From Gammaproteobacteria bacterium (lineage in GTDB: Bacteria; Pseudomonadota; Gammaproteobacteria; Ga0077536): a DNA stretch of 64,000 nucleotides. Below are positions 22,354 through 42,146 of this stretch, one piece after another. The stretch spans positions 164,985 through 228,984 of the forward strand of contig JBHIYN010000001.1 in the NCBI GenBank assembly GCA_041984235.1, in the 5' to 3' direction. Numbering within the stretch: position 1 is the first letter of the stretch; each line of letters begins with the position of its first letter. The notes below the pieces were generated by a model. The model was not told the DNA's origin and searched no databases. It was given only the letters and a program-made list of their open reading frames with translations. The position numbers and the translations under genes were made by a program.

Positions 22354-24642
22354 TTACTTGCCGTCGAGCGCCTTGAGCAGCTTGGGCGGCGAGATCGGCA
22401 GGTCCGCCAGGCGCACGCCGGTGGCGCGTGACACGGCGTTGGCGACCGCCGCCAGCGGCGGAACGATGGGCACCTCGCCGACGCCGCGCACGCCATAGGG
22501 ATGGCCCGGGTTGGGCACCTCGACCAGCACGGTGTCGATCATCGGCAGGTCGGAAGCGACCGGCACGCGATAGTCGAGGAAGCCGGTGTTCTGCAGCCGC
22601 CCTTCGGCGTCGTAGACGTACTCCTCGTTCAGCGCCCAGCCGATGCCCTGCACGGCGCCGCCCTGCAACTGGCCTTCGACGTAGCTCGGGTGGATGGCCT
22701 TGCCGACGTCCTGGATCGCGGTGTAGCGCAGGATGGTGACGCGGCCGGTCTCCGGATCGACCTCGACGTCGCAGATGTGCGTGCCGAAGCCGGGACCGGC
22801 GCCGTGGGCGTTGATGTTGGCCTTGCCGGAAATCGCACCGCCGGTCTTGTCCGCCATCGCCGCGATGTCGGCGATCGAGAGCGGCTTGTGCTGCTCGGTC
22901 TCAATGCAGCGCGCCTCGCCGTTCTCCCATTCGACCTGGTCGAGGTCGACGTCCCAGATCTTGGCGGCGCGCCGGCGCATGTCGTTGACCGCGTCCTGCG
23001 CGGCCTCGATCACGGCCTTGCCGGTGGCGAAGGTGACGCGCGAGCCGCCGGTCAGCATGGAGAAGGGCACGGACTCGGTGTCCGCCACCAGCGGCTTGAT
23101 GCGGGCGACGTCGATACCGAGCACCTCGGCCGCCATCAGCGCCATGGAGGCACGCGAGCCGCCGATGTCCGGGTTGCCGGTGGCCACGATCACGGTGCCG
23201 TCCTCGTTGACCATGACCTCGGCGCTGGAGGTGCCGCCGATGTTGAACCAGAAACCCGAAGCGATGCCGCGACCCTGGTTCGGCCCCAGCGGCGCGCTCC
23301 AGTGCGGGTGGTCCTTCGCCGCTTCCAGCGTTTCCTTGTACCCGATGCGGCCGAACTTGACGCCGTAGGGCGCCTGCGTGCCTTCCACCGCGGCGTTCTT
23401 CATGCGCAGCTCCAGCGGGTCCATGCCGAGCTGCTGGGCGAGCTCGTCGAGCGCCGACTCGACCGCGAACGCGGCGACCGGCGCGCCGGGTGCACGGTAG
23501 GCGGCGGCCTTGGGCCGGTTGACGACCACGTCCCAGCCGACGCAGGAGACGTCGGTAAGGTTGTACGGCGCGAAGCCGGTCATGCAGCCAAGCGCGACCG
23601 GCGAGCCGGCGAAGGCGCCGGCCTCGTACTCCATCTCGAGCTCGCCCGCGACCAGGGTGCCGTCCTTCTTCGCGCCGATCCTGGCGCGTGCATGGCCGCC
23701 CGAGGTCGGCCCGGTAGCGCGCATGACCTCGTCGCGGGTCATTACCATCTTCACCGGGCGCCCCGCCTGCTTGGCGAGCATGACCGCCAACGGCTCCAGG
23801 TAAACGACGGTCTTGCCGCCGAAGCCGCCGCCGATCTCGGCCGGGATGACCTTGATCCGCGCGGTCTCCATGCCGCACATCTTGGCGACGTAGGCGCGCA
23901 CCATGAACTGGCCCTGGCTGGAGCACCAGATGGTGACCTGGCCGTCGGCCGCGATCGAGGCGACGCAGGCGTGCGGCTCGATGTAGCCCTGGTGCACGGT
24001 CTGGGTGGTGAAGTCGCGCTCGACGATGACGTCGGCCTTGGCGAAGGCCTTGTCCGGGTCGCCGAGGCGGAACTCGGCGCGGTTGGCCACGTTGGAAGCC
24101 TTTTTCGGTTTCGGCTCCACGCCGCCGGTGAACATGTCCTTGTGCAGCACGGGCGCGTTCTTCTTCATCGCCTCGGCCGCGGTCATGACCGGCTTGAGCA
24201 CTTCGTACTCGACCTCGATCAGTTCGGCGGCGCGCTCCGCGATCTGCGGCGAGGTGGCGGCGACGGCCGCGACCGCGTGCCCGTCGTAGAGCACCTTGTC
24301 ACGCGCGATGGTGTTGCGCGACATGTCGTAGAAGCTGACCACCACTTCGCCGACCGCCTTGTCGGACGGGTCGAGCTGCGGCAGGTCCTGCCCGGTGATG
24401 ACGGCTTTCACGCCCTTGAGGCGCAGGGCCTTGTCGATGTTGATCTTCTTGATCTTCGCGTGCGCATGCGGGCTGCGCACGACCTTGCCCCAGATCATGC
24501 CGTTGACTTCGAAATCGGCACCGAAGTTGGCGCGGCCGGTGACCTTGTCGGCGCCGTCCGGTCGCACCGGGCGGGTACCGATGTGGCGGAACTCGCGGCC
24601 GCTGTAATCGATGATCTTCTGGATGTCTTCTTCGTTACCCAT
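22354..24642 (-). CDS. xanthine dehydrogenase / aldehyde oxidase family molybdopterin-binding large subunit (CoxL-like)
   Basis: A 762-aa protein with a typical a/b-hammerhead N-terminus ('VRPDGADKVTGRANFGADF'). The active-site-loop region reads 'AAYRAPGAP', not the 'VAYRCSFR' of form I CO dehydrogenase. Confidence 0.85.
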   Translation of the reverse strand: MGNEEDIQKIIDYSGREFRHIGTRPVRPDGADKVTGRANFGADFEVNGMIWGKVVRSPHAHAKIKKINIDKALRLKGVKAVITGQDLPQLDPSDKAVGEVVVSFYDMSRNTIARDKVLYDGHAVAAVAATSPQIAERAAELIEVEYEVLKPVMTAAEAMKKNAPVLHKDMFTGGVEPKPKKASNVANRAEFRLGDPDKAFAKADVIVERDFTTQTVHQGYIEPHACVASIAADGQVTIWCSSQGQFMVRAYVAKMCGMETARIKVIPAEIGGGFGGKTVVYLEPLAVMLAKQAGRPVKMVMTRDEVMRATGPTSGGHARARIGAKKDGTLVAGELEMEYEAGAFAGSPVALGCMTGFAPYNLTDVSCVGWDVVVNRPKAAAYRAPGAPVAAFAVESALDELAQQLGMDPLELRMKNAAVEGTQAPYGVKFGRIGYKETLEAAKDHPHWSAPLGPNQGRGIASGFWFNIGGTSSAEVMVNEDGTVIVATGNPDIGGSRASMALMAAEVLGIDVARIKPLVADTESVPFSMLTGGSRVTFATGKAVIEAAQDAVNDMRRRAAKIWDVDLDQVEWENGEARCIETEQHKPLSIADIAAMADKTGGAISGKANINAHGAGPGFGTHICDVEVDPETGRVTILRYTAIQDVGKAIHPSYVEGQLQGGAVQGIGWALNEEYVYDAEGRLQNTGFLDYRVPVASDLPMIDTVLVEVPNPGHPYGVRGVGEVPIVPPLAAVANAVSRATGVRLADLPISPPKLLKALDGK

Positions 24643-24645
24643 CGC

Positions 24646-25122
24646 TCATGCTCCTCGCATTTCAGCCGCGGCGTTCATGACCGCGCGAATGATCTTGTCG
24701 TAGCCGGTGCAGCGGCACAGGTTGCCGGCGAGCCAGTAGCGCGCCTCGGTCTCGGTCGGGTCCGGGTTCGCCTCGAGCAGCGCCTTGGCGGCGACGATGA
24801 AGCCCGGCGTGCAGATACCGCACTGCAGGCCGGCTTCCTCGAGGAAGTGACGCTGCACCGGGTGCAGCTCCTCGCCCTCGGCGACGCCTTCGATGGTCTC
24901 GATGCTGGCGCCCTCGGCCTCGGCACCGAGCACCAGGCAGGAACAGACCAGGCGTCCGTTCATCATGATGCTGCACGCGCCGCAGTCGCCCGAAGCGCAG
25001 CCCTCCTTGCTGCCGGTCAGGCCGAGTTCGTCACGCAGGCAGTCGAGCAGGGTCTGCTCGGTGTCGCACAGGAACTCGGCCGGGTCGCCGTTGATGGTCG
25101 TGGTGACGTGATGTTTGGCCAT
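24646..25122 (-). CDS. (2Fe-2S)-binding small subunit of a Mo hydroxylase (CoxS-like)
   Basis: Two [2Fe-2S] cysteine clusters are present: 'CASGDCGACSIMMNGRLVCSC' and 'CGICTPG...CRCTGY'. Confidence 0.9.
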   Translation of the reverse strand: MAKHHVTTTINGDPAEFLCDTEQTLLDCLRDELGLTGSKEGCASGDCGACSIMMNGRLVCSCLVLGAEAEGASIETIEGVAEGEELHPVQRHFLEEAGLQCGICTPGFIVAAKALLEANPDPTETEARYWLAGNLCRCTGYDKIIRAVMNAAAEMRGA

Positions 25123-25137
25123 GTCTCGGGATGCTCC

Positions 25138-26007
25138 TTATGCGCCGCGCGCGCGTTCGAGTGCAATCAGCGCCGCGCGGCGCGCCAGCACGCCGGCGAC
25201 GCGGGTGCGGTACTCGGCAGTGCCGCGCTTGTCGTCGATCGGCTTGCACGCGGCGCTGGCCGCGGCGGCCAGGGCGGCCAGCGCGTCGTCGTCCAGCGTG
25301 GTGCCGATGATGGCCTTCGCCGCTTCCTTGACCAGCAGCGGGCGCGGCGCGACCGCGCCCAGGGCGACGCGTGCGTCGGACACCACGCCCTTGGCGTCCA
25401 GGGTCAGGCTGACCGCGGCGCCGACCACGGCGATGTCCATCTCGGTGCGCGGGATGAAGCGCAGGTAGGCATCGCCCGAGCGCCGCGGGCGCTTGGGCAG
25501 GAAGAAGCTGACCACGAACTCGCCTTTCTTCAGCGAGGTCTTGCCCGGGCCGGTGACGATGTCCTCGACCTTGGCGGTGCGCGTGCCCTTGGCGCCGGCG
25601 ATCTTGCAGGTCGCGCCGGCCGCGATCAGGCCCGGTACGCTGTCGGCGGCGGGTGAGCCATTGCACAGGTTGCCGCCGAGCGAGGCGCGGCCCTGGATCT
25701 GGGTCGAGCCGATCAGCTCGAGTCCCTCGACCACGCCGGGCCAGGCCTTGCGCACCGCCTTGTTGGCGCCGAGCTCGGCACCCGACACGGCAGCGCCGAT
25801 ACGGAAGCCGTTCTTCTCGCGTTTGACCTCGCGCAGCTCGGGTATGTGCTTGATGTCGACGATGAGGCCGGGGCGGGTACGCCCGGCGCGCAATTGCACG
25901 AGGAGGTCGGTCCCTCCCGCGAGCACCTTGGCCTTGCCCTTGGCGCCGGACAGCGTGCGTACGGCTTCACGCACGGTCTGCGGCGCAGCGAATTGAATTT
26001 CTGCCAC
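25138..26007 (-). CDS. FAD-binding medium subunit of a Mo hydroxylase (CoxM-like)
   Basis: FAD-binding PCMH-type motifs 'VLAGGTDLLVQL' and 'ASLGGNLCNGSPAADS' are present. Confidence 0.85.
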   Translation of the reverse strand: MAEIQFAAPQTVREAVRTLSGAKGKAKVLAGGTDLLVQLRAGRTRPGLIVDIKHIPELREVKREKNGFRIGAAVSGAELGANKAVRKAWPGVVEGLELIGSTQIQGRASLGGNLCNGSPAADSVPGLIAAGATCKIAGAKGTRTAKVEDIVTGPGKTSLKKGEFVVSFFLPKRPRRSGDAYLRFIPRTEMDIAVVGAAVSLTLDAKGVVSDARVALGAVAPRPLLVKEAAKAIIGTTLDDDALAALAAAASAACKPIDDKRGTAEYRTRVAGVLARRAALIALERARGA

Positions 26008-26114
26008 GTTCCCCTCGATCCAGACGATTGACGAAGCCTCCTATCTTACACACCTTCGATGACGGCGACAGATGCAAAGCCGTGCATATCCGCGGCCGTT
26101 CGGCGGGCCTGCGC

Positions 26115-28442
26115 TCAGCCCGGCAGGCCGAGCACGCCCTTGGCGATGATGTTGCGCTGGATCTCGTTCGAGCCGCCGTAGATCGTCGCCGGCCGTGCGT
26201 TGTAGAACTGGCTGAGGACGTCCACCGTCTCGTGACCGAAGGCGAGCGCGCCGGGCGTCGCGCCGTCGGCGGCGGCCGCCTCGACCATCAGCTCGGACAG
26301 CCGCGCGAAGGTCTCGGTGCCCCAGATCTTGAGCAGCGACACGTCCGGACCCAGCGTGTCGCCGCGGCGCACGATGTCGGCGAACACCTGGTAGGTCGAC
26401 TCCAGGTCCAGCACGTCGAGCTTGAGCCGCACGAGGCGATCGCGGAAGGCGCCGTCGTCGAGCATCCCGGCGCCGGCGGCGAGCGCTTCGAGGCGCATCA
26501 GGGCGTACTGCGACTGCTTGGGGCTGCCGATGAAGATACGCTCGAAACCGAGCAGGGCCTTGGCGATGGTCCAGCCCTGGTTGATCTCGCCGACCAGGCA
26601 ATCCGCCGGCACGCGCACGTCGTCGAGGAACACCTCGCAGAACTCCTCGTGTCCGGCGATGTTGCGAATCGGGCGTATGGTCACCCCCGGCTGGTCGAAG
26701 TCGATGAGGAAGAAGCTGATGCCGGCCTGCGGCTTGCCTTCCCTGGAAGTGCGCGCGAGGCAGAACATGTGGGTCGCGTCCTGCGCCAGCGTGGTCCAGG
26801 TCTTCTGCCCGTTGATCACGAACTCGTCGCCATCGGCAACGGCCTCGGTCTTGAGGCTGGCGAGGTCGGAGCCGGCATTCGGTTCCGAGTAGCCCTGGCA
26901 CCACACGGCGTCGCCGGACAGGATCTGCGGCAGGTATCTCGCGCGCTGCTCGGCGGTACCGTGGCGTATGAGCAGCGGGCCGACCATCTGGATACCCATG
27001 TCGGGTGCGCGGCCGACGCCCCAGCGCTCCTGCTCCTCGATGAAGATGAGCAGCTTCGACGGCGACAGGCCCATGCCGCCATGCTCCGCCGGCCACGCCG
27101 GCGCCACCCAGCCCTTCGCCGAGAGCTTCAGGTACCACGGCTTGATGTCGGACCAGCGCAGGCGTTCCGAGGGATAGCGCAGCTCGGGCGGGTACTCGGA
27201 CTCGAAGAAGCGGCGCACCAGCATGCGAAAGGTCTCGTCGTCGATGCTGTCCCACTCGCCGTTGGCGGGCTCCGCGGTAGTGGTGAGCGTAGCCGGCGCG
27301 CGCTCGCCGCTCTCCGCGCCGAGCAGGCTGGCCAGGCGGGTCGCGTGGAAGCTCGCGTTGCCGTGGCGTGCGGCCAGCACCAGCGCGCGGTTGAGATACA
27401 GGCCGACGTCGCACTCGTCGGTGTAACCGATGCCGCCGTGCAGCTGCACGGCCTGGCGGGTCAGCAGCAGCGCCGTCTCGCTGGCGCGGTACTTGGCGCG
27501 GCTCGCGGCCCGCGCGCGCGCCTCGGCCGAGACCGCGGCGTCGTAGTCGGCGAGTGCCTCGTCGAGCACTGCGCCGGCGATGGTCTTGTGGATGAAGAGG
27601 TCGACCGCGCGGTGCTGCAGGGCCTGGAAGCTGCCGATCGGGCGGCCGAACTGCTCGCGGGTCTTGAGGTAGTCCAGGGTGATGTCGAAGATGCGCTCGC
27701 TCAGGCCGACCAGGTAGGCGGCGCTGCCGAGGCGTGCCAGCGCGCGTGCGTCGGCCAGCGCGTCGGCCGCGGCGTCGCCGCGCGCGAGCAGGGCGCCGGC
27801 GTCGACCGCGGCCTGCTCCAGGATCAGCGTGGCGCTGCTGGTGCCGTCACTCTGGGTGCGGGATTCGACGCGCACGCGCGCGTGGTCGGTGGCGACCAGG
27901 AACAGGGCGGGAGCCGTGTCGAGCACGGCTTCGACCACGACGTGGTCCAGCGCCTCGGCCAGGGCCACGCCGCGCACTCGCCCGTCGAGCAGGTAGCCGT
28001 CGCGCTGCGGCGTTGCCAGCAGGGGCGGAATGCCGCCGGCGAACTCACCGGCCTCGGCCAGCGCGGCGCCGATCAGGGTCTCGCCGTGAAAGAGGTCACG
28101 CAGCAGCACGCCGTCGCGGTCCAGCGCCGCGAGCAGGCCGCAGGCGGCGACACCGCATTCGAGCATCGGCTCGGGCGCTACCACGCGGCCCAGCTCGCGG
28201 CACACCGCGCCCGCCGCCTGGGCGCCGAGATCGAGCCCGCCGGCGGTCTCCGGTGCGAGGATGCCGGCCCAGCCGAGCTCGCACATCTCGCGCCACGCAC
28301 CGCGGTCGAACGGCGGCGCCGCGCCGCGCAGTGCACGCAGGCGTTCCACGCCGAGACTGCGTGCGCAGAAGTCGGCGGCGCTGTCACGCAGCATGTCGAT
28401 GGTCTCGAGGTCCACCGCGGGGCGGCGCAGGGCTTCGCTCAT
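26115..28442 (-). CDS. fused two-domain acyl-CoA dehydrogenase (776 aa)
   Basis: Two consecutive ACAD-like units are present. The second has canonical 'QGYSEPNAGSDLASL' and 'TIYGGSNEIQRNIIAK'. The start is at 'MSEALRRPAV' with a GGAGAC SD. The remainder of track ORF 26115..29822 is antisense to the hydratase gene. Confidence 0.75.
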   Translation of the reverse strand: MSEALRRPAVDLETIDMLRDSAADFCARSLGVERLRALRGAAPPFDRGAWREMCELGWAGILAPETAGGLDLGAQAAGAVCRELGRVVAPEPMLECGVAACGLLAALDRDGVLLRDLFHGETLIGAALAEAGEFAGGIPPLLATPQRDGYLLDGRVRGVALAEALDHVVVEAVLDTAPALFLVATDHARVRVESRTQSDGTSSATLILEQAAVDAGALLARGDAAADALADARALARLGSAAYLVGLSERIFDITLDYLKTREQFGRPIGSFQALQHRAVDLFIHKTIAGAVLDEALADYDAAVSAEARARAASRAKYRASETALLLTRQAVQLHGGIGYTDECDVGLYLNRALVLAARHGNASFHATRLASLLGAESGERAPATLTTTAEPANGEWDSIDDETFRMLVRRFFESEYPPELRYPSERLRWSDIKPWYLKLSAKGWVAPAWPAEHGGMGLSPSKLLIFIEEQERWGVGRAPDMGIQMVGPLLIRHGTAEQRARYLPQILSGDAVWCQGYSEPNAGSDLASLKTEAVADGDEFVINGQKTWTTLAQDATHMFCLARTSREGKPQAGISFFLIDFDQPGVTIRPIRNIAGHEEFCEVFLDDVRVPADCLVGEINQGWTIAKALLGFERIFIGSPKQSQYALMRLEALAAGAGMLDDGAFRDRLVRLKLDVLDLESTYQVFADIVRRGDTLGPDVSLLKIWGTETFARLSELMVEAAAADGATPGALAFGHETVDVLSQFYNARPATIYGGSNEIQRNIIAKGVLGLPG

Positions 28443-28574
28443 GGTCGGGTCTCCGAAGTCGCGGTAAGGCGTGCGATGATAAATCGTTATCGAGCCGCTG
28501 TCGGGCAGCGCCCGCCGCCGGCCGGTCCGATCAACGGCGTGGCACGGCGTCGCGCCGCACAGCGAGGGGAGACG

Positions 28575-29351
28575 ATGAAGCCTGAACTGGTCAAGCTCGA
28601 CGTGGTCGAGGATTTCGTGGCGGTGGTGACGCTGGACAACCCGCCGGTCAACGCGCACAGCCAGCGCCTGCTCGAAGAGGTGGCCTGGACCTTCGACACC
28701 GTCAGCGACCGCGAGGACATCCGCGCCGCGGTGCTGACCGGTGCCGGCAAGTGCTTCTGTGCCGGCGCCGACATCAAGGAACGCGTCGGGCGCACGCCGC
28801 AGCCGGGCGACCACTGGCAGAACAGTCGCCGCGCCCGCGAGGCTTACCACAGCATCATGGAGTGCCGTAAGCCGGTCATCGCCGCGATCAACGGCCCGGC
28901 GCTGGGCGGCGGGCTGGCGCTCGCGGCCTCCTGCGACATCCTGCTGGCGAGCGAGGACGGCTGCCTGGGTCTGCCCGAGATCAACGTCGGCCTGCTGGGC
29001 GGCGGCCGCCACAGCCAGCGCCTGTTCGGGCATTCGCGCCTGCGCCGCATGATGCTCACCGGCATGCGCCTGTTCGGACCCGAGCTGTACCGCCTGGGCG
29101 TGGTCGAGGCGTGCACCGCGCCGGACGCGCTGATGGACGAGGCGCTCGCGATCGCCCGCGAGATCGCGGCCAAGAGCCCCGTCGCAAGCGTGCTCGCCAA
29201 GCACGCGCTCAACCAGATCGAGGAGATGACGCTGCGCGACGGCTACCGCTTCGAGCAGACCATGACCGGCGAGCTCGGCAAGACCGAGGACTCGAAGGAA
29301 GCGATGCGCGCGTTCGTGGAGAAACGCACGCCGCAATTCAAGGGCCGCTGA
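28575..29351 (+). CDS. enoyl-CoA hydratase/isomerase
   Basis: 'VLTGAGKCFCAGADIKE' and 'AAINGPALGGGLALAASCDILLAS' are present. A GAGGGGA SD precedes the ATG. It is divergent from the fused ACAD. Confidence 0.85.
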   Translation: MKPELVKLDVVEDFVAVVTLDNPPVNAHSQRLLEEVAWTFDTVSDREDIRAAVLTGAGKCFCAGADIKERVGRTPQPGDHWQNSRRAREAYHSIMECRKPVIAAINGPALGGGLALAASCDILLASEDGCLGLPEINVGLLGGGRHSQRLFGHSRLRRMMLTGMRLFGPELYRLGVVEACTAPDALMDEALAIAREIAAKSPVASVLAKHALNQIEEMTLRDGYRFEQTMTGELGKTEDSKEAMRAFVEKRTPQFKGR

Positions 29352-29381: not shown

Positions 29382-29909
29382 ATGAGTATCGAATTCGTCG
29401 ACCCACGTGGCGAGACACGGCGCGCCGCGCAAGCCTATGAACATGTCCTCGACGTCACCGTGCCGGCGACCATCGGCCTGCTGGCCAACGGCTTTCCCGA
29501 CTCGGTCGCGTTCCTGGACGCGGTCGAGGTCGCTCTGGGCGAGGCGCTGCCGCAGGCGAGCTTCCGCCGCTACGCCAAGCCGGGCGCCTCGGCGCCGGCC
29601 GACAGCGCGCTGGTCGCCCGCATCGCGGCCGAGTGCGATGCGCTGGTGACCGCCTACGGGCACTGAGGCAGCTGCACATCCGGCACCGTGCGTGACGGCA
29701 TTGCACTGGCCCGCGAGGGGCGCCCGGCGGTGGCCTTCGTGACCACCAAGTTCGAGCCGCAGGGCGACTTCGTCGCCCGCGCCGAGGGCATGCCCGACGT
29801 GCCTCGCGTGATCGTGCCGCACCCGGTGGCCGGCATCGGTGCTGCCGCCATGGCCGCGCTGGCGCGCGACATCGCCGTCACCGTGGTCGAACGGCTGCGC
29901 GCCGGATGA
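29382..29909 (+). CDS. UGSC-motif selenoprotein; TGA at 29664..29666 read as selenocysteine
   Basis: Track ORFs 29382..29666 and 29688..29909 are in the same frame, separated only by one TGA. Read-through gives '...AYGH-U-GSC-TSGTVRDGIALAREG...'. There is a GGAGAA SD before 29382. The gene is co-oriented with selA and selB downstream, and tRNA-Sec is present in the window. Confidence 0.75.
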
Positions 29910-30973
29910 GCGCGCTGCTCAGCGCGGCCGATGCCGATGCCGCACTCGAGCGACTGCACGCCCTGCGCTGCACGGACGGCCTGCCGGTGGTCATTCCGAC
30001 CCCCGAGCGCGTCTCGCGGCTGGTGCTCGCGAGCGGGCTGGACGCCGACATCGAGCTCGGCGTGATGGGGCCGGGTTATGGCGTCGCCACCGTGGAGAAG
30101 GTTGCCGCCTGCGCGGTCATGGCCGGCTGCCTGCCCGACCACATGCCGGTGGTCGCGGCCGCCGTGCGCGCGGTGTGCCGGCCCGAGTTCGATCTCACCG
30201 AGATGCAGTGCACCACGCATGCCATCGCACCGCTGGTCGTGGTCAACGGTCCGGCGCGCGCGGCCGGCGGCTTCGCCTCCGGCTTCGGGCTGATGGGGCC
30301 CGGCCACCGCGCCAACGCCAGCGTCGGCCGCGCCCTGCGCCTGGCCATGATCAACATCGGCGGCGCGCGCCCGGGCGAATCCGACATGGCCATCCACGGC
30401 TCGCCGGCCAAGTTCTCGCTGTGCTTTGCCGAGGACGAGGCGGCCTCGCCCTTCGCGCCGCTGCACACGACCTTCGGCTACGCGCCCGGCGACAGCGCGG
30501 TCATGGTGCTCGGCGTCGAGGGCCCGCACTCGGTGCTGTTCAGCGGCGATGCCGGCGATAGCGCGTCGGCCGAGGCCCTGCTCGACACCCTGGCCGCGGT
30601 GATCGCCAATCGCGGCAGCAACAACTCCTACCTCGGCGGCCGCGCCGCGGTCGCGCTGGTGCTCAATCCCGAGCATGCCGCGATCCTGGCCGGGGCCGGT
30701 CATGGCCGCGAGTCCGTGCAGCAGGAGCTCGCCGCGCGCGCGGTGACCCCGCGCGAAATCCTGCAGCGCCTCAATCCGAAGATGCTGCAGGGCGAGGAAG
30801 CCCTGATCCCGGCAGTGCGCGATCCGGCCCGGGTGCACCTGATGGTGGCCGGCGCGCCCGGCCTGTACTCGGTCGTGATGCCGTCGTGGTGTGCCGGGCC
30901 ACACGGCAACGTCGCGGTGCACGCGGCGGTCGAGCTGGACCCGTACTGCGAATTACCCACGGCCTCCCGCTGA
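29906..30973 (+). CDS. conserved hypothetical protein (355 aa), translationally coupled to the UGSC selenoprotein
   Basis: A long intact ORF whose start overlaps the upstream stop by 4 nt (ATGA). Family not recognised from sequence; it is not SelD-like. Confidence 0.55.
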   Translation: MSALLSAADADAALERLHALRCTDGLPVVIPTPERVSRLVLASGLDADIELGVMGPGYGVATVEKVAACAVMAGCLPDHMPVVAAAVRAVCRPEFDLTEMQCTTHAIAPLVVVNGPARAAGGFASGFGLMGPGHRANASVGRALRLAMINIGGARPGESDMAIHGSPAKFSLCFAEDEAASPFAPLHTTFGYAPGDSAVMVLGVEGPHSVLFSGDAGDSASAEALLDTLAAVIANRGSNNSYLGGRAAVALVLNPEHAAILAGAGHGRESVQQELAARAVTPREILQRLNPKMLQGEEALIPAVRDPARVHLMVAGAPGLYSVVMPSWCAGPHGNVAVHAAVELDPYCELPTASR

Positions 30974-31040: not shown

Positions 31041-32129
31041 ATGTCCGATCTGTATGCCGACGCCGCGGTCACGGTACGCGAGGATCTCGCCGCCGCGCAC
31101 GCGCGCAGCCTGGCCAGTTTTAGCGCGCCGGGAACCTGGTTCGACGGCGCGACCCGCGCCGGCCTGGCCGGCGAGGCGCGGCAGGCCCGCGCAGAGGCCG
31201 GCCTGCAGCCGGGCACGCCGCCGACGGAGGGGGGCGGCGCGGTGCCCGCGGCCGCCGCGCGCGTGGTCCGGCGGATTGCCGCCGACCCGACCGACCTCGA
31301 TCGCAGCCTGTTCGACGATGCCTGCGCCGAGGGTCTGAGCGAGGAAGAGTACGTCGAATGCGTCGGCATTGCCGCGCGCATCAGTAACCTCGACATGTTC
31401 GCGCGCGGCCTCGGCGTCGCACCGCGGCCGCTGCCGCCGGTCAGCGCCGGCGAGCCGAGCCGACGGCGTCCGGCCGCGGCGGTCGCGGAGGGCGCCTGGG
31501 TGGCGACGATCCCCAACGGTGAGGCCGGCGGCGCCGAGGGTGCCGCGCTCTACGGCGGGCAGTGGGCGGCCAACATCCTGCGCGCGCTCAGCCTGGTGCC
31601 CGCCGAAGCCGCGGACCTGATTGCCTTGGGCGACGTGCAGTACGTCTCGGTGGCCAACTTCATGGACTTCGGCTACTCGCACGACCCGGCCATCTCGCGG
31701 CAGCAGGTCGAACTGGTGGCGGCGCGCATCTCCGCGCTCAACGCCTGCTTCTACTGAACCTCCTGGCATGTGCAGCTGCTCCGTGCGAGCGGCCAGTCGG
31801 GACAGAAGACTTACGAACTGAAAGGGGTTACCGATCGTGCGCTCGCTATCGGCGTGGACGACGAGGACGTCTTGCTGGCCTTCGCCGACGCGGTCTTCGG
31901 CGGGCCGCAGGCTGCGCTCGACGCGGCGCGCAGCGCGCTGCGCCATCGCCTGGGTGACGGCGGCCTGGTCGAGGCCGCGATCACCGCGGCGAATTTCAGC
32001 CTGGTCGATCGCGTCGCCAACAGCATCGGTATTCCGCTCGATGGCATGGCCATCGAGCAGACGGCCGATTTTCGCGAACCGCTCGGCATCAACCGCTTCC
32101 CTTCGGCGCGCAATACGCTCGGCGGCTGA
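31041..32129 (+). CDS. AhpD/carboxymuconolactone-decarboxylase-like selenoprotein (CxxUxxxH); TGA at 31755..31757 read as selenocysteine
   Basis: Track ORFs 31002..31757 and 31770..32129 share a frame and are separated by one TGA. Read-through gives 'NA-C-F-Y-U-T-S-W-H', matching the AhpD core CxxCxxxH motif with Sec in place of the second Cys. A 'ggggggagaa' SD precedes the ATG at 31041. selA lies immediately downstream. Confidence 0.75.
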
Positions 32130-32159: not shown

Positions 32160-33584
32160 GTGAGCGACGGCGCCGAGGCCAACGCGGCGCTGCGGGCGGT
32201 GCCGTCGATCGACGAGTTGCTGCGCGGTGCCGATGCCGCCCGCCTGGTCGATGCCTGGGGCCGCGAAGCGGTCGTCGCGGCCTTGCGCGAAGCGGCCGAC
32301 GCGGCGCGCGCGGCACTCGCCGGGGGCGCTGCGGCGGCGCGTGCGCAGGCGTCGGCGGAGGCCCTGGTCGCGGACGCGGCCGCCCGCCTCGCGGCGCTGA
32401 TGGCGCCGGCGCTGAAGCCGGTGTTCAACCTCACCGGCACGGTGCTGCACACCAATCTCGGACGCGCGCCGCTGCCGGCCGAGGCGATCGCGGCGATGAG
32501 CGCGGCGGCCGGTGCCAGCAACCTCGAGTACGACCTCTCGACGGGACGCCGCGGCGATCGCGATGCGCTGGTCGAGGACTGGATCTGCCGCCTCACCGGG
32601 GCCGAGGCGGCGACCGTGGTCAACAACAACGCCGCCGCCGTGCTGCTGCTGCTGAACACGCTCGCGCGGCGCCGCGAGGTGCCCGTGTCGCGCGGCGAGC
32701 TGGTCGAGATCGGCGGCGCCTTCCGTATTCCCGACGTCATGGCGCGGGCCGGCAGCAAGCTGGTCGAGGTCGGTACGACCAACCGTACCCATGCGCGTGA
32801 TTTCGAGGACGCGCTCGGTGCGCGCAGCGCGCTGCTCATGAAGGTGCATACCAGTAACTACGTGGTCGAGGGTTTCACCGCCGCGGTCGCCGAGCCCGAG
32901 CTGGCGCGCATCGCGCATGCAGCCGGTGTGCCGTTCGTGGTCGATCTCGGCAGTGGCACGCTGACCGACCTGTCGCGCTTCGGCCTGCCGCGCGAGCAGA
33001 CCGTCGCCGAGACCCTGGCCAATGGCGCCGACCTGGTGACCTTCAGCGGTGACAAGCTGCTCGGCGGCCCGCAGTGCGGCATCATCGCGGGGCGCGCCGA
33101 TCTCGTGCGCCGCATCAAGAAGAACCCGATGAAGCGCGCCCTGCGCGTGGACAAGATCACGCTCGCCGCGCTGGGCGCGGTGCTGCGCCTGTACGGCGAT
33201 CCCGCACGCCTGCCCGAACGCCTGCCGGCGCTGCGCCTGCTGACCCGCGACGAGGCCGACATCCGCGCCGCTGCCGAGCGGCTGCTGCAGCCGCTGCGTG
33301 CGGCACTGGGCGCTGCCGCGACGGTCGACGTCGTCGCCTGTCGCAGCCAGATCGGCAGCGGCGCCCTGCCGGTCGACCTGTTGCCGAGCGCCGCGCTGCG
33401 CATCACGCCGCCGGGCCGGCGCGGGCGGGCACCGGAGCGGCTGGCCGCACGCCTGCGCGCGCTGCCGCTGCCGGTCATCGGTCGCATCGCGGACGGCGCC
33501 GTGCTGCTCGACCTGCGCTGCCTGGACGACGAGGCCGGATTCGTCGACCAGCTGGCGCTGCTGGGCGAGGGTGAAGCGCCGTGA
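32160..33584 (+). CDS. selA: L-seryl-tRNA(Sec) selenium transferase
   Basis: The PLP-lysine region '[20 protein letters not shown]', '[15 protein letters not shown]' and the N-terminal 'VPSIDELLR' are present. The start is GTG. Confidence 0.9.
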
Positions 33585-35494
33585 TCGTCGCCACCGCCGG
33601 CCACGTCGATCATGGCAAGACGCTGCTGGTGCGGGCGCTCACCGGTGTGGACACCGACCGCCTGCCGGAGGAGAAGCAGCGCGGACTGACCATAGAGCTC
33701 GGCTTCGCCTACCACGATCTCGGCGACGGCGAGATCACCGGCTTCATCGACGTGCCCGGCCACGAGCGCTTCATTCGTACCATGATCGCCGGTGCCAGCG
33801 GCATCGACGTGGTGCTGTTCATCGTCGCCGCGGACGACGGCCCGATGCCGCAGACCGCGGAGCATCTCGCGATCCTCGACCTGCTGGGGGTGCAGCGCGG
33901 GGTGGTCGCATTGACCAAGGTCGACCGGGTCGACGACGCGCGCCTGCAGGCGGTTACCGTCGAGTGCCGCCGCCTGTTCGAACCGACGCCGCTGGCGATG
34001 GCTCCGATCGTACCCGTTTCGGCGCTCGAAGGCCGCGGCATCGATCTGCTGCGCGAGGTGCTGCTGAAGCTCTCCGCCGAGGTGCCGCCGCGTGTGGTCG
34101 CAGGCAATTTCCGCCTCGCCATCGATCGCAGCTTCCTGCTCAAGGGCGCCGGACGGGTGGTGACCGGCACCGTCTTCTCCGGGCAGGTCGGCGTCGGCGA
34201 GGCGGTGTGTCACGTCCCGGGCGGCGAGAGCGTGCGGGTGCGCGGCATCCACGCCCAGAACCACGAGGCGGAGTCGGCCGGCGCCGGCCTGCGCACCGCG
34301 CTCAACCTGGCCGGCAGCGGGCTGCGCGACGGCGATCTGCATCGCGGTGACTGGATCGTCGCTGACGGCGCCGCGTTCTCCACCCGCCGGCTCGACGCCA
34401 TGCTGCGCGTGCTGCCGGGGGAGAGCCGGGCGCTGCGCAATCGCACCCCGGTGCACGTGCACGTCGGCGCCGCCGACGTCACCGGCCGCGTCGTGACCTT
34501 CGACGGCAAGGCCATAGAGCCCGGCGCGGAGGCGCCGGTGCAGTTGCTGCTCGACCGCGAGCTGCACGCGGTCCACGGCGACCGCATCGTGCTGCGCGAC
34601 CAGTCGGCGCGGCGTACCCTGGGCGGCGGCACGGTCATCGATCCGGTGCCCGACGTCCGCGGCCGCTCGCGCAGCGAGCGCGTACGTTACCGTGAAGCGA
34701 TGTCGTGTGACGACCCGGCCGCGGCCCTGGACGCGGCCCTGGCGGCGCTCCCCGACGGCATCGAGCTCGATCGCTTCAGTCGCTGCTGGAATCTTACCGC
34801 CGCGGAGGCCGAGGCACTGTTCGCGCGCAGCGCGATGGTGCGCGTCGACCGCGGCGACGTGCGGCTCGGTTTCGAGCCGGCGCGCTGGCAGGCCCTGCAG
34901 GACATGCTGCCGCCGGCGGTGGCGGCGGTTCATGCCGAGGCGCCCGACCGCCCCGGTGCCAGCGAGGCCGAGATCAACCGCAAGCTGCCCGAGCGCCTGC
35001 GTCCCGCACTGCTCGCGCTGCTCGTCGAACAGCTCGTCGCGGCCGGTACCCTGGAACGCAACGGCGCCGTGGTGCGCGTGCCCGGTCACGCTGTGCAGCG
35101 CTCGCCGGCCGACGAGAAGCTGTGGCGGCGGGTCGGGCCGATCCTCGAAAAGGCCGCGTTGAAGGCGCCGGTGGTGCATGACCTGCACGAGGCGCTGCAC
35201 ATCGACCTCAAGCTGCTGGAGGGTTTCCTCGGGCGCTCTGCGCAGCAGGGTTACCTGGTGCGCGTGAGCGCCAAGCGTTACTTCCTGCCGGACAGCATGC
35301 GCACTTTCGAGACCATCGTGCTGGAGCTTGCGCGCACCCAGCCGGATGGCGTATTCACCGTTGCCGATTTTCGTAACCGCGCCGGCATCGGCCGCAATGC
35401 GGTGGTCGAGATCCTGGAATACTTCGACCGCGTCGGCCTGACCCGGCGCCACGGCCAGGTGCGCCGGGTCGTCGGCACGCCCACCCATCTCTGA
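33581..35494 (+). CDS. selB: selenocysteine-specific translation elongation factor
   Basis: The GTPase G1 motif '[16 protein letters not shown]', 'DVPGHERFI' and the long C-terminal winged-helix extension are present. It overlaps selA by 4 nt (GTGA). Confidence 0.9.
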
Positions 35495-35508: not shown

Positions 35509-36747
35509 ATGAGTACGAGTATCAGCGTGGACACCGCCGCCGGACGTGTCGAGGGGCATTGCGATACGCGCTTCGCCGCCGTCGCCGACGCCTTCGTCGC
35601 CAATTTCGAACAACGCGACGAAGTCGGCGCGAGCTGCGCGATCACGCTCGAGGGTGAGACCGTGGTCGACCTGTGGGGCGGACGTATCACGCGTGGCGGC
35701 GAGGCCTGGCAGCGCGACACGCTGTGCACCGTGTTCTCCTCGACCAAGGGTGCGATGGCGCTCTGCGCGCACATGCTCGCCGATCGCGGCAAGCTCGATC
35801 TCGATGCCCTGGTGACCGATTACTGGCCCGAGTTCGGGACCGGCGGCAAGGAAGGCGCGCGGGTGAAGATGACGCTGGACCACAGCGTCGGCGTGCCTCA
35901 CGTGCGCGACGCGGTGCCGCCCGGCGGCTTCTACGATTACGACGCCATGGTTGCGCGGATTGCCGCCGAGCCGGCTTTCTGGGAGCCCGGCACGCGCGGT
36001 GGCTACCACGCCATCAGCATGGCCTGGACGGTCGGCGAGCTGGTGCACCGCGCGGCCGGCCAGCGTCTCGGTGCGTTCTTCGACGCGCAGGTGGCGAAGC
36101 CGCTCGGCATCGACTTCTGGATCGGGGCGCCGGCGACGGTCGAGGATCGTATCTCGCCGATGATCCCGGCCGAGCCCGACGAGCCCTGGCTCGCGACCCG
36201 CTTCATCCAGGCCGCGCTCGGCGCCGAGCAGAACCCGACGCAGCTCTTCATGCGCGACTTCCTGCTGGTCGACGCCAACGACCCGGCCTGTCACCAGGCC
36301 GAGATCGGCTCGGCCAACGGCGTCACCAACGCGCGCGGCCTGGCCGGCATGTACGCGCCGCTGGCCAACGGCGGGGCGCTCGGCGGCACGCACCTGGTCG
36401 GCGCGGACACGCTGGCACGCATGGGCCGGGTCAGCATGGCTTCGCACGACGACGCCACGCTGCTGATCCCGACCCGCTTCGCGCTCGGCTACATGAAGAG
36501 CACGGACAATCGCCGCGTGCCGAACACGGTCAACGCCAGCCTGCTCGCCGGCGAGTCAGCCTTCGGCCACGTCGGCGCCGGCGGCTCGCTCGGGCTCGCC
36601 GACCCGGAATGCGCGATGAGCTTCGGTTACGCCATGAACCGCATGGGCACCGGGCTGCTGATGAACGAGCGCGGGCAGTCGCTGCTCGACGCCGCTTACC
36701 GTGCGCTCGGCTATCGCTCTGACGCCAGCGGGGCGTGGCGCACCTGA
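35509..36747 (+). CDS. serine hydrolase, class C beta-lactamase/esterase family
   Basis: The S-x-x-K motif 'FSSTKG' and a fold-typical sequence are present. It starts 14 nt after selB. Confidence 0.75.
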   Translation: MSTSISVDTAAGRVEGHCDTRFAAVADAFVANFEQRDEVGASCAITLEGETVVDLWGGRITRGGEAWQRDTLCTVFSSTKGAMALCAHMLADRGKLDLDALVTDYWPEFGTGGKEGARVKMTLDHSVGVPHVRDAVPPGGFYDYDAMVARIAAEPAFWEPGTRGGYHAISMAWTVGELVHRAAGQRLGAFFDAQVAKPLGIDFWIGAPATVEDRISPMIPAEPDEPWLATRFIQAALGAEQNPTQLFMRDFLLVDANDPACHQAEIGSANGVTNARGLAGMYAPLANGGALGGTHLVGADTLARMGRVSMASHDDATLLIPTRFALGYMKSTDNRRVPNTVNASLLAGESAFGHVGAGGSLGLADPECAMSFGYAMNRMGTGLLMNERGQSLLDAAYRALGYRSDASGAWRT

Positions 36748-36829: not shown

Positions 36830-36925
36830 GGAAGAGCATCGCCACCCGGTGGGGCGCCCGGTCTTCAAAACCGGTGAGACGGCCGCAGGGTCGTCTGGCA
36901 GGTTCGACTCCTGCCTCTTTCGCCA
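36830..36925 (+). tRNA. selC: tRNA-Sec (anticodon UCA)
   Basis: The 96-nt sequence is 'GGAAGAGC...GGTCTTCAAAACC...GCAGGTTCGACTCCTGC...CTCTTTCGCCA'. The anticodon loop is 'CUUCAAA' with anticodon UCA. It has a long variable arm and an extended acceptor, and the T-arm is identical to E. coli selC from memory. Confidence 0.85.
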
Positions 36926-36986
36926 CTTCATCCGCCGGCGGGGCCAGGCTCGGCCCCGCCGGCGATTCTCCGGGGGGAGGAGCAAC

Positions 36987-37475
36987 ATGCAGTTCCATCA
37001 CATGGCCGTGTTCGTCAGCGACATGGCGGAGGCGGTGCGCCTGTGGCGTGACGTGCTCGGTTTCAAGGTCGCGGTCGAAACCACCATTCCGGATGGCCCC
37101 GAACCGGGACCCAGGACCTACATGTACCCGGCGCTGCTCGACGACATCTTCAAAGTCGAGGGCGCAAAATCAAAAATGGTCCTGCTGATGTCCGACGAGG
37201 GCGCGCTGATTGAGCTGCAGGAATGCGAGAACCCCGCCATCCAGCGCACGCCGAAGGAGAACCTGCGCTACGGCCACACCGGCTTCCACGAGCTCGGCCT
37301 GCTGGTGGACGATATCGACGGTTGGTTCGAGAAGGTGCGCGCGGCCGGTTACGAGACCCAGACCGACTACGTCTGGACCTGCGCCAGCATCGGCCGCTCG
37401 TTCCTGTTCTACGATGCCGACGGCAACATGATCCAGCTCTGGGAGCACACCGCGGAGCCGACCTGGGAGACCTGA
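36987..37475 (+). CDS. VOC-family (glyoxalase/bleomycin-resistance/dioxygenase fold) protein
   Basis: 'MQFHHMAVFVSDMAEAVRLWRDVLGF' is typical of the VOC fold. A 'ggggggaggag' SD is present. Confidence 0.7.
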   Translation: MQFHHMAVFVSDMAEAVRLWRDVLGFKVAVETTIPDGPEPGPRTYMYPALLDDIFKVEGAKSKMVLLMSDEGALIELQECENPAIQRTPKENLRYGHTGFHELGLLVDDIDGWFEKVRAAGYETQTDYVWTCASIGRSFLFYDADGNMIQLWEHTAEPTWET

Positions 37476-38209: not shown

Positions 38210-39388
38210 TCAGCGTACCGGCGTCAGGTCCGGTGCCGGGTAGTAGGGCGTATCGCCGAGCGCGTCGACCGCGGCCCAGAACTCGGGTGCGGTGTTGAGC
38301 TCACCGACCAGCTCGGGGTCCAGCATCATGCTCTGGCGGCGGTAGTTCCAGCTCTCCGGGCACAGCCGGGAGGCCTCGCTGAAGTGTTGCTTGGCCGCGT
38401 CCAGCGCGCCGCTGACGTAGAGCTGGCGGCCGAGGCGCACGTGCGCAGCCGCGCGCACCGCGTTCTCGTCCGGCCCGCGCAGACGGCGCCTGACCTCGTC
38501 CGGCGGCAGCACGTAGGGGCTGTCGGCACCGTTCTTCACCCAGTCACGCAGCGCGTCGATGTAGGCACAGCGCACGCTGGCGCCTTCGTTCGCGGCGGCG
38601 TCCGGGATCTCCATGGTCTCGCGGTTGAGGTGCCGCACCATGTCGATGGTGCCGGCGGATTCGGCCGGGCGCACGATGCGGCCCTGCTCGTCGATCCATA
38701 CGCTCTGCGGCACGTTGACCATGCCGTAGAGCTCGGCGACGAGGTGGTTCTCGTCGATCAGGCAGGGGTAGGTCGGCGGCTTCTGGTTCTGCCACAGCTC
38801 CGGTGCCCAGCCCATCAGGCGGGCCAGCATTTCCGGCCGCTCGGCGATGTCCAGGGCGCGGATGCTCTTTTCGACCGCGGCCTTGCCGGCGGTGTCGAAT
38901 GCGATGGCGAGGATTTCAAGTCCGTCGCCGTGCAGCTCTTCGTAGATTGCCTGCCACACGGGCAGGTCAAAGCTGCAGCCTCAGTAGGAGCCCCACGAGA
39001 ACATGAACACTTTCTGCCCGCGGTAGTCGGACAGGGAGTGCAGCCTGCCGTCGAGATCGGGCAGCGTGAAGTCGGGCGCCTCCAGCGACATCATCTGGTC
39101 GCGCAGACTGCTGACCGACTCGCCGAACGACCACGCGTCGTGCGTCTCGTCGCGCACCAGCGGCTGGTGCATGTGCTCGGCGAAGGCGGCGAGATCGACA
39201 CGGCCCTGGTCGTCGCGCCAGGCGTCGTCGGCGCGCACGCAGGCGTCGCCGCGGCACAGGCCCTCGGGTTGCAGTTTCCAGCCGGTTGCGGCGGCCAGGT
39301 CGTCCGGGCTGAGCCACAGATGCCCGCCGTCGGCAACCGCGTCCGCCACTTCGGTGACGCGGTCGTCGTAGAGAATCGTTGCGCTCAT
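38210..39388 (-). CDS. thioredoxin-fold (TlpA/peroxiredoxin-like) selenoprotein; TGA at 38981..38983 (minus strand) read as selenocysteine
   Basis: Track ORFs 38981..39388 and 38210..38959 share a frame and are separated by one TGA. Read-through gives 'APDFTLPDLDGRLHSLSDYRGQKVFMFSWGSY-U-GCSFDLPVWQAIYEELHGDGLEILAIAFD', with Sec at the position of the redox-active Cys after the beta-strand. A GAGGAGC SD precedes 39388. Confidence 0.75.
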
Positions 39389-39463: not shown

Positions 39464-40462
39464 TCAGGCTTGCGGCGTTTCGCCCAGGAAGGCGCGGGCG
39501 GCGGCGTTGGCGCGCGCCGCCGGGCAGGCGCGGCTGGCGCCGATGAAGCCCGCGAGGTCGGTCTGCTCGATGGCATAGGGGTAGTCGCTGCCGGCGAACA
39601 CGCGACCCGGCGCGACGTGGCCGGCGAGGTAGTCGAGGTAGCCGTGGTCGTAGACCAGGCTGTCGTAGAAGAAGCTGCCGGCCTGCGCCAGCGGTGCGCG
39701 GGTCAGCGCCCCGTCGAAGCCCGCGCTGAGGCGGAAGCCCTGGCCGAGCCGTGCGGCGAGCGGTGCCGTGGCGCCGCCGCCGTGACTGAGGCCTATCCTC
39801 AGACGTGGATGACGCTCGGCGATGCCGCCGCGGATCAGGGTCATGGCGCTGAGGCCGGTGTCGACGGCGAAGGCCGCGAAGGGCACGAGATCGGGGAACG
39901 TCTGCAGACGATCGGCCGCGGCCGGGTGCAGGGCGTGTACGAACACCGCCAGGTCGAGCCGCTCGGCCTCGGCGAAGAACTCGCCGAAGCGCGGCTCGCC
40001 AAGGTAGGCGCCGTTGACGTTGCTGCCGAGCTCCACCCCGCTGAAGCCGTCGGCCTTCAGTCGCGCCAGCTCGCGCGCGGCCAGGGCGGGGTCCTGCAGC
40101 GGCACCATGCCGAGCGCGCGGAAGCGATCCGGCCGCGCCGCGACCAGCCCGGCGAGGAAGCCGTTGACGTGGCGCGCCATGGCGATCGTGTCGCCGGCCT
40201 CGAACCAGTAGGAGAGCAGCTCCGGCATCGGCGAGAGCACCTGCACGGCAATGCCGTCGCGGTCCATGTCGGCGATGCGCCGCGCGGCGTGCCAGGAGCG
40301 CGCGTCCAGCTCGCGGAAGGCCTTGCCCGCGATCTCGATCACGGCGTGTTCGTCGCCGTGCAAGCACAGGCACGGCCAGCGCGGGTTGCTCGCCGGCGAC
40401 GGATTGGCCGGGAAGCCGTCCGGGACGACGTGCGTGTGCACGTCGATGAGGCCTTCGGGCAT
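39464..40462 (-). CDS. amidohydrolase-2 family (ACMSD-like metal-dependent hydrolase/decarboxylase)
   Basis: The N-terminus 'MPEGLIDVHTHVVPDGFP' has the HxH metal motif. It is the real gene inside track ORF 39464..40888. Confidence 0.75.
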   Translation of the reverse strand: MPEGLIDVHTHVVPDGFPANPSPASNPRWPCLCLHGDEHAVIEIAGKAFRELDARSWHAARRIADMDRDGIAVQVLSPMPELLSYWFEAGDTIAMARHVNGFLAGLVAARPDRFRALGMVPLQDPALAARELARLKADGFSGVELGSNVNGAYLGEPRFGEFFAEAERLDLAVFVHALHPAAADRLQTFPDLVPFAAFAVDTGLSAMTLIRGGIAERHPRLRIGLSHGGGATAPLAARLGQGFRLSAGFDGALTRAPLAQAGSFFYDSLVYDHGYLDYLAGHVAPGRVFAGSDYPYAIEQTDLAGFIGASRACPAARANAAARAFLGETPQA

Positions 40463-40476
40463 GCGGTGCGCGCCCG

Positions 40477-41226
40477 TCACAGCATCGTGCTGCCGCCGTT
40501 GACGCTGATCACCTGCCCGGTGACGAAGCTCGCCTCGTCGCGCGCGAGGTAGGCGACCATGGAGGCGACCTCGTCCATGGTGCCCGGTCGTCCCATCGGG
40601 ATCACGTCGTTGAACTGCTTCACCCAGGGATCGTCTTTCGCCATCAGCTCGGCGACCATCGGCGTCGCCACCATGCACGGGGCGACGGTGTTGACGGTGA
40701 TGTTCTGCTGTGCGACTTCGCGCGCGACCCCGGTGGTGAGCGCATGCATGCCGCCCTTGGCAGCGTTGTAGGCGGCGTGCTCGGGCAGCCCGTTGCGCAC
40801 CGAGTCCGCACCGATCATGATGATGCGCCCGCCGCCCTGTTCGATCATCAGCGGCAGCGCCAGCCAGGTACACCACAGCGCGGTCCACAGGTTGCGGTCG
40901 ACGGTCTGGCGCAGGGTCTCCGGGGTGTGTTCCAGGAACGGGCGTATGACCCCGCCGCCGGCGTTGTTGACCAGGATGTCGAGGCGCCCGAAGGCAGCCT
41001 GCGTGTTCCCGATCAGCGCGCGCGCGGTGGCCTCCTCGCTGAGGTCGCCGCGGAAGGCGAAGCTGTCGGCGCCGAGCTCGGTGGCGACCGTCTCCACGTT
41101 GTCGGCGAGGTCGGCGATGGCGATCCGCGCGCCCTCGGCCCTGAGCCGCCGCGCGATGGCGAGACCGATACCGCCAGCGGCGCCGGTGACCAGCGCGGTC
41201 TTGCCGTCGAGACTGCCGCTGCCCAT
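40477..41226 (-). CDS. SDR-family oxidoreductase
   Basis: The Rossmann motif 'TALVTGAAGGIGLAIARRL', the catalytic 'YNAAKGG' and 'NNAG' are present. Confidence 0.85.
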   Translation of the reverse strand: MGSGSLDGKTALVTGAAGGIGLAIARRLRAEGARIAIADLADNVETVATELGADSFAFRGDLSEEATARALIGNTQAAFGRLDILVNNAGGGVIRPFLEHTPETLRQTVDRNLWTALWCTWLALPLMIEQGGGRIIMIGADSVRNGLPEHAAYNAAKGGMHALTTGVAREVAQQNITVNTVAPCMVATPMVAELMAKDDPWVKQFNDVIPMGRPGTMDEVASMVAYLARDEASFVTGQVISVNGGSTML

Positions 41227-41227
41227 C

Positions 41228-42133: not shown

Positions 42134-42146
42134 GGGCGGCGGTTCC

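Follow-up and report, generated by a model that had tools for sequence, protein, structure and literature searches.

The bSECIS model of Zhang and Gladyshev (bSECISearch), as summarized in PMC13188914, describes a bacterial hairpin with an apical loop of 3 to 9 nt on an upper stem of 4 to 16 bp, a G at loop position 1 or 2, usually with G or U next to it on the 3′ side, a distance of 16 to 37 nt from the UGA to the apical loop, and a minimum free energy (MFE) of −7.5 kcal/mol or lower. The E. coli fdhF/fdnG SECIS is a 17-nt mini-hairpin with a bulged U17 and the loop dinucleotide G23-U24 (PMC8659212). UGSC-containing and AhpD-like (CxxU) as well as UGC-containing Prx-like proteins are known selenoprotein families of the GOS selenoproteome (PMC2398784).

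We analyzed a 64,000-nt stretch of a gammaproteobacterial contig, hereafter the window, in which three in-frame UGA codons are found at 29664 (plus strand; site 1), 31755 (plus strand; site 2) and 38983 (minus strand; site 3). It is very likely that the three sites are bacterial SECIS in unrelated, already catalogued genes, that they share the apical end C-CGUG(C/U)-G, and that the GC(A/T)GC(A/T)GC (GCWGCWGC) palindromes found near them are not the recognition element. The kind of element is already known, and the locus is an instance of a well-understood mechanism.

Three in-frame UGA codons encode selenocysteine in known selenoprotein families

The first gene (29382–29909, plus strand) is of the UGSC family and carries its UGA at 29664–29666 within the motif H-U-G-S-C-T. 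Read-through products were matched to family profiles with Cys substituted for the stop. The UGSC product scores 159 bits with Pfam PF24696 (UGSC; cut-off 25) and 114 bits with NCBIfam NF041046, which is under the cut-off of 125, and its HUGSCT motif is aligned with the CGSC of the Cys forms. The second gene (31041–32129, plus strand; UGA at 31755–31757) encodes an AhpD-related CFYUT selenoprotein (motif C-F-Y-U-T, in the context NACFYUTSWH) that scores 359.5 bits with NF041238, where the cut-off is 175. The third gene (38210–39388, minus strand; UGA at 38983–38981) encodes a ResA-like WAxxUGC selenoprotein with 319.1 bits for NF041054 (cut-off 300); its motif, W-G-S-Y-U-G-C, has G at the position where the family name has A. 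The Sec motifs UGSC, CFYU-T (= CxxU) and W-x-x-x-UGC are the same as those of the known families (PMC2398784; NF041046, NF041238 and NF041054), the profiles match, and Cys-form homologs exist for the known families. A distinguishing feature here is that the three genes are all located within 10 kb of selA, selB and tRNA-Sec.

If the UGAs were true stops, sequencing errors or pseudogene lesions, the downstream hairpins would be irrelevant, and gene callers do cut all three genes at the UGA, producing for example P0172 (249 aa) and P0121 (238 aa), the latter 100% identical to the N-terminal fragment of the AhpD-related protein. We give this explanation practically no weight, because TGA is kept at the same codon across hundreds of independent assemblies: in 79 of 80 homologous genomic loci for the UGSC family, in 80 of 80 metagenomic homologs for the AhpD-related family, and in every WAxxUGC homolog retrieved as a split ORF (7 distinct sequences). 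The TGA also lines up with the catalytic Cys of the Cys-form homologs, the coding signal persists in frame on either side of each UGA (GC3 of 0.82–0.94), and the genes for the Sec machinery lie among the three. When the entire window was scanned for in-frame TGA codons flanked on both sides by coding signal, these three sites came up along with five ordinary junctions between a stop and the next gene. The candidate Sec codons proposed in the initial annotation are thus borne out by family profiles, by TGA conservation and by selA, selB and tRNA-Sec in the window, and are genuine Sec codons in three known selenoprotein families.

The closest UGSC relatives are from uncultured gammaproteobacterial MAGs. 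The regions within 10 kb on either side of the UGSC homologs were searched for the AhpD-related and WAxxUGC families and neither came along, so each family was retrieved separately.

Sec machinery and gene neighborhood

Located between the three selenoprotein genes are selA (selenocysteine synthase; 32160–33584, plus strand), which matches TIGR00474 with 575.7 bits and Pfam SelA; selB (Sec-specific elongation factor; 33581–35494, plus strand; TIGR00475, 410.7 bits), whose product has C-terminal winged-helix domains matching PF09107 (SelB-wing_3) and PF09106 (SelB-wing_2); and a tRNA-Sec with anticodon UCA (36830–36925, plus strand), detected by ARAGORN and by Rfam RF01852 with 62.6 bits. The ORFs from 22.3 to 43.9 kb were scanned, and selD was not seen among them. 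A β-lactamase-family gene (35509–36747, plus strand) lies between selB and tRNA-Sec. The glyoxalase-family ORF as listed (36849–37475, plus strand) overlaps the 3′ part of tRNA-Sec, and its true start is therefore probably further downstream. One flank of the region (22354–29351, minus strand) holds a molybdenum hydroxylase set, consisting of a MoCo-binding large subunit and an FAD subunit, together with a large acyl-CoA dehydrogenase-like gene. The other flank (39464–43933, minus strand) holds aromatic degradation genes encoding an amidohydrolase_2, an SDR, an extradiol dioxygenase and a Rieske oxygenase.

Downstream of the UGSC gene is a 355-aa ORF (29906–30973, plus strand) without Pfam or NCBIfam match, the start of which overlaps the UGSC stop (ATGA). 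All 80 UGSC loci (L001–L080) have a homolog of this ORF (51–82% identity) immediately downstream in the same orientation, and it is present after Cys-form UGSC genes as well (L179–L183). The UGSC gene and the 355-aa ORF seem to form a conserved two-gene unit, and the ORF may correspond to the "Unknown_1" domain reported fused to UGSC in PMC2398784. The arrangement of the window, with selA and selB a few kb away from the UGSC gene pair, recurs in 13 gammaproteobacterial loci (L001, L003, L007, L008, L010–L012, L014, L017, L019, L021, L023 and L025). In L001, selA directly follows the UGSC partner gene, which makes the AhpD-related gene look like an insertion peculiar to the window's lineage.

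A hairpin with a CGUG(C/U) apical loop follows each Sec codon

All three hairpins lie inside the ORF, immediately 3′ of the in-frame Sec-UGA, as the bSECIS model describes. The apical hairpin of the UGSC gene, CCG.CAC[CGUGC]GUG.CGG (29680–29698, plus strand), has its loop at 29687–29691 and contains a G.A 1×1 internal loop. The AhpD-related hairpin, GCUGCUC[CGUGC]GAGCGGC (31775–31793, plus strand), has its loop at 31782–31786 and may extend over 31761–31802. The WAxxUGC hairpin, CCUGCC[CGUGU]GGCAGG (38950–38966, minus strand), has its loop at 38960–38956. Common to the three sites are a 5-nt loop, CGUG(C/U), and a C-G closing pair, which together form the word C-CGUG-Y-G, whereas the stems below the loop differ in sequence between sites. 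The initial annotation had noticed that the first two sites share ccgtgcg; this heptamer is present at 29686–29692 and 31781–31787, 22 and 26 nt downstream of the first base of the respective UGA, and corresponds exactly to the apical loop plus its closing pair. Site 3 carries CCGTGTG, with the first C at 38961 on the minus strand.

Counted from the U of the UGA as position 1, the loops occupy nt 24–28, 28–32 and 24–28 at sites 1, 2 and 3, and the loop G-U dinucleotide falls at nt 25–26, 29–30 and 25–26. The hairpins begin 13, 17 and 14 nt after the UGA, and the gaps between UGA and loop, 20, 24 and 20 nt, are inside the 16–37-nt range of the bSECIS model. This spacing is fixed within each family, since the alignments contain no indels. 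The 5-nt loops, whose second and third positions are G and U, also agree with the model. The upper stem comprises 7 bp in the AhpD-related hairpin (site 2) and 6 bp in the WAxxUGC hairpin (site 3); at site 1 the stem is broken by the invariant G.A internal loop into 3 + 3 bp and reaches the 4-bp minimum only when both halves are taken together as a single helix. Similarly, the MFE limit is reached at site 1 only with the lower helix (−15.5 kcal/mol), the apical hairpin alone having an MFE of only −4.9 kcal/mol. The MFE of the site 2 hairpin is −10.2 kcal/mol, a value of −19.7 kcal/mol also being given for site 2, and that of the site 3 hairpin is −9.3 kcal/mol, or −10.5 kcal/mol with two extra pairs. 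Two expectations of the initial annotation, a stable hairpin 10 to 40 nt downstream of the UGA and a G/U feature in the apical loop, are therefore realized at all three sites, by folding and by the G-U at loop positions 2–3. The word C-CGUG-N-G specifies the loop more sharply than the generic model does; we see no essential difference from that model.

The comparison with E. coli fdhF is less close. The position class is the same, although the hairpins begin 13–17 nt after the UGA rather than 11 nt, and both have an exposed apical G-U and a presumed SelB winged-helix reader. The loop is CGUGY here and GGUC there, so that the fdhF-type loop is not found at these sites; the three hairpins are without a bulged U on the 5′ arm, and the distance from UGA to G-U exceeds that in fdhF by 2 nt at sites 1 and 3 and by 6 nt at site 2. 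Rfam covariance models placed no family at any of the three sites, even at E ≤ 10, and found only the tRNA-Sec.

If the E. coli and Moorella systems are a guide, the three loops would be bound by the SelB of the window (33581–35494) through its C-terminal winged-helix domains. SelB bound to a loop would be expected to tether the SelB.GTP.Sec-tRNA(Sec) complex to the ribosome as the UGA enters the A site, and the tethered complex, if it acts as in those systems, would allow Sec to be inserted in place of termination.

Evidence for RNA-level selection on the loop and stem

We considered the possibility that there is no RNA signal at all, and that the shared words, including CCGUGYG, simply follow from the amino acids encoded and from the codon bias of G+C-rich DNA. 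Several observations are compatible with this: only one codon exists for Trp, GUG and CCC are used commonly, and the MFE z-scores are not significant, because the 61–67-nt segments after the UGAs fold no better than dinucleotide shuffles (z = +1.5, −0.35 and −1.05). As there is no excess stability in this 70% G+C DNA, stability alone neither proves nor refutes a SECIS. The position and frame of the loop word speak against a coding by-product. CCGTG[CT]G occurs 40 times in the window on both strands, and the chance that it starts in the 22-nt SECIS-allowed range after a given UGA is ~0.007, or ~3e-7 for all three. The word sits in different reading frames, with GUG as a Val codon at sites 1 and 3, whereas site 2 reads CGU/GCG (Arg-Ala), and it therefore cannot be a shared peptide motif. 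Among Sec-form homologs, CCGTGNG is kept in 75/75 UGSC, 64/70 AhpD-related and 7/7 WAxxUGC sequences.

The clearest evidence comes from the UGSC family, for which the Sec-form set comprised 80 sequences from Gammaproteobacteria, Acidimicrobiia, Planctomycetota, Thermoanaerobaculia and Syntrophales. The 15-nt block GGCACCGUGCGUGAC (29682–29696; alignment columns 19–33) is invariant in all 80, five synonymous positions included. Codons +6 to +10 (GGC ACC GUG CGU GAC) are codon-invariant in 78 distinct sequences, whereas the equally invariant residues alongside (G, H, G, S, C, T, A and P) are encoded by 2–4 codons apiece. The Arg codon is always CGU in the Sec forms and supplies the base for pairing with A22. 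In the four distinct UGSC Cys forms the Arg codon is CGC in every case, and the Thr, Val and Asp codons vary too; these Cys-form controls, with codons relaxed in 4 distinct forms, are decisive. The RNAalifold consensus of the 80 sequences is the apical hairpin alone. The apical helix is 99.1% paired, and compensatory changes are found at two pairs: pair 17–35 changes from C-G to G-C in 17 sequences, and pair 18–34 from C-G to U-A in 2.

The AhpD-related hairpin is 85% paired in 69 distinct sequences, compared with 36–56% for slid controls, and shows compensatory changes at 4 pairs; one subgroup has a bulged U in the 3′ arm. Within the hairpin, Leu is encoded by CTC in 71 of 72 sequences and Arg by CGT in 67 of 71, but the Arg ten codons upstream of the hairpin is CGT in only 7 of 72. 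Although CGU is fixed for Arg at the hairpin (78/78 UGSC, 67/71 AhpD-related), it accounts for only a minority of the Arg codons in the rest of these genes. A covariance model built from AhpD-related hairpins of other organisms only (R1) had a single significant hit in the window, at 31773–31795 (E = 9e-8), which is site 2. It gave no hit on sites 1 and 3 at E ≤ 10, and the three hairpins are accordingly not homologous beyond the 7-nt loop and closing pair.

For WAxxUGC, the loop CGUGU is invariant in 7 distinct homologs, and the stem is kept or lengthened through wobble and amino-acid changes; no double compensatory change was found among the 7 distinct Sec sequences. These data are consistent with a SECIS and are weaker than those for the UGSC and AhpD-related families. 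With respect to the conserved, covarying structure of the bSECIS model, we therefore find covariation at 2 pairs for UGSC and 4 for AhpD-related, and wobble changes only for WAxxUGC. In the AhpD-related and WAxxUGC families there is, in addition, one Cys form each (L188 and L184, respectively) that still has most of the hairpin, which speaks for a coding by-product; relaxation in the absence of Sec is thus seen for UGSC alone. L188 keeps CUC[CGUGG]GAG, and the WAxxUGC Cys forms L184–L187 (Cryobacterium) keep CUGCC[CGUGU]GGCAA. The hairpins in L188 and L184–L187 may be SECIS fossils of a recent replacement of Sec by Cys, or may reflect coding constraint alone. Set against the CGC codons of all four UGSC Cys forms, the compensatory changes at stem pairs, the fixed CGU codons and the different reading frames of the loop word, an origin of the shared words in amino acids and codon bias alone is highly improbable, and we favor selection on an RNA signal.

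Two further sequences resembling the three sites were seen. In L008 (minus strand, offset 12943 of the reverse complement), an additional in-frame TGA in the context …FTGG-U-TAECVSLRESA… is followed at SECIS distance by GCGCUC[CGUGA]GAGCGC; the gene probably encodes another AhpD-like selenoprotein with the same loop word. Within the window, a hairpin with an 8-bp stem, GCUGACC[CGUGC]GGUUGGC, is located at approximately 56982–57002 (plus strand) inside an AMP-dependent (acyl-CoA) synthetase gene. A fourth Sec site near 56989 was rejected, the only upstream TGA being out of frame (GTG ATT). The hairpin is a chance look-alike, and the specificity of the motif is limited in 70% G+C DNA.

The GCWGCWGC palindrome is not the SECIS core

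The initial annotation had drawn attention to a palindrome downstream of the three UGAs and had read it as a recurrent, stem-forming SECIS core. All the strings that it quoted downstream of the UGAs are in the sequence as described. GCAGCTGC is present at 29668–29675 (site 1) and 31772–31779 (site 2), and GCTGCAGC at 38972–38979 (site 3; the same coordinates on the minus strand). The inverted arrangement described for sites 1 and 2 is also real: GCAGCTGCACAT (29668–29679) is the exact reverse complement of ATGTGCAGCTGC (31768–31779), on the same strand and 2.1 kb away. We rejected this 12-nt inverted repeat as meaningful, as it is lost in relatives (L001, for example, has GCAGCTGTACTT); self-complementarity accounts for 8 of its 12 nt, relatives do not conserve the remaining four, and we therefore judged it a coincidence.

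GCWGCWGC is a fairly common word in the 70% G+C window, with 28 occurrences against 17.8 ± 4.5 in dinucleotide shuffles, 4 of 100 of which reach 28. That it follows each of the three UGAs departs from chance only through the two sites that encode the redox motif Gly-Ser-Cys or Gly-Cys-Ser directly after Sec: the palindrome is formed by the codons GGC-AGC-UGC (U-G-S-C) at site 1 and GGC-UGC-AGC (U-G-C-S) at site 3. At site 2 it is formed by CAG CTG C (Gln-Leu-Leu) and is a lineage-specific accident. The annotation had itself raised the alternative that the shared motifs are explained by the encoded amino acids alone, and this is true of the palindrome at sites 1 and 3 but not of the loop motif.

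A role for the palindrome as SECIS core could be argued from its position, within 24 nt of all three UGAs, and from the structures: in the MFE folds of this genome it is a member of the lower helix at sites 1 and 3, and its 3′ half forms the 5′ arm of the site 2 stem. The site 1 lower helix (29667–29711, plus strand), which is optional and lineage-specific, includes GCAGCTGC (29668–29675) paired with UGCACUG downstream; the site 2 stem includes only the 3′ half, GCUGC. Conservation is poor, with the palindrome present in 27/75 UGSC, 1/70 AhpD-related and 3/7 WAxxUGC Sec-form homologs. Its synonymous positions vary freely (in UGSC, the codons are GGC in 68%, AGC in 72% and TGC in 78%), and it is found in L182, a Cys-form UGSC gene without UGA (TGC GGC AGC TGC). 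The UGSC lower helix that contains it is only 66% paired across 73 distinct sequences and lies outside the RNAalifold consensus, and self-folding is impossible for an 8-nt perfect palindrome. The reading of the palindromes as SECIS stems is therefore not borne out; we regard it as largely refuted and a palindromic core as very unlikely. The palindromes at most add to optional lower helices in this genome. Of the SECIS proposal as a whole, the presence of SECIS and the recurrence of ccgtgcg stand, and the palindrome as the core does not.

Discussion

The apical hairpin and its C-CGUG-Y-G loop, rather than the palindrome, are the features shared by SECIS in three otherwise unrelated genes. We suggest only tentatively, and regard it as somewhat doubtful, that C-CGUG-N-G on a short G+C-rich stem constitutes a distinct SECIS subclass, found across phyla in at least three unrelated families and in different reading frames. 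Were this so, the extreme case would be the universally invariant 15-nt GGCACCGUGCGUGAC of UGSC mRNAs, the SelB recognition code would be unlike that for the E. coli GGUC loop and bulged U, and sequence-level detection of Sec-UGA codons in these lineages would be possible.

Recognition of the SECIS restores three full-length redox selenoproteins that gene callers truncate at the UGA, leaving database fragments of 238 and 249 aa, and identifies their surroundings as a selenium-utilization cluster. The useful marker of a Sec-UGA in this lineage is the C-CGUG-N-G loop 20–24 nt downstream and not the palindrome. In UGSC mRNAs, the 15 nt that stay unchanged across phyla illustrate cleanly how an RNA signal can override synonymous drift.
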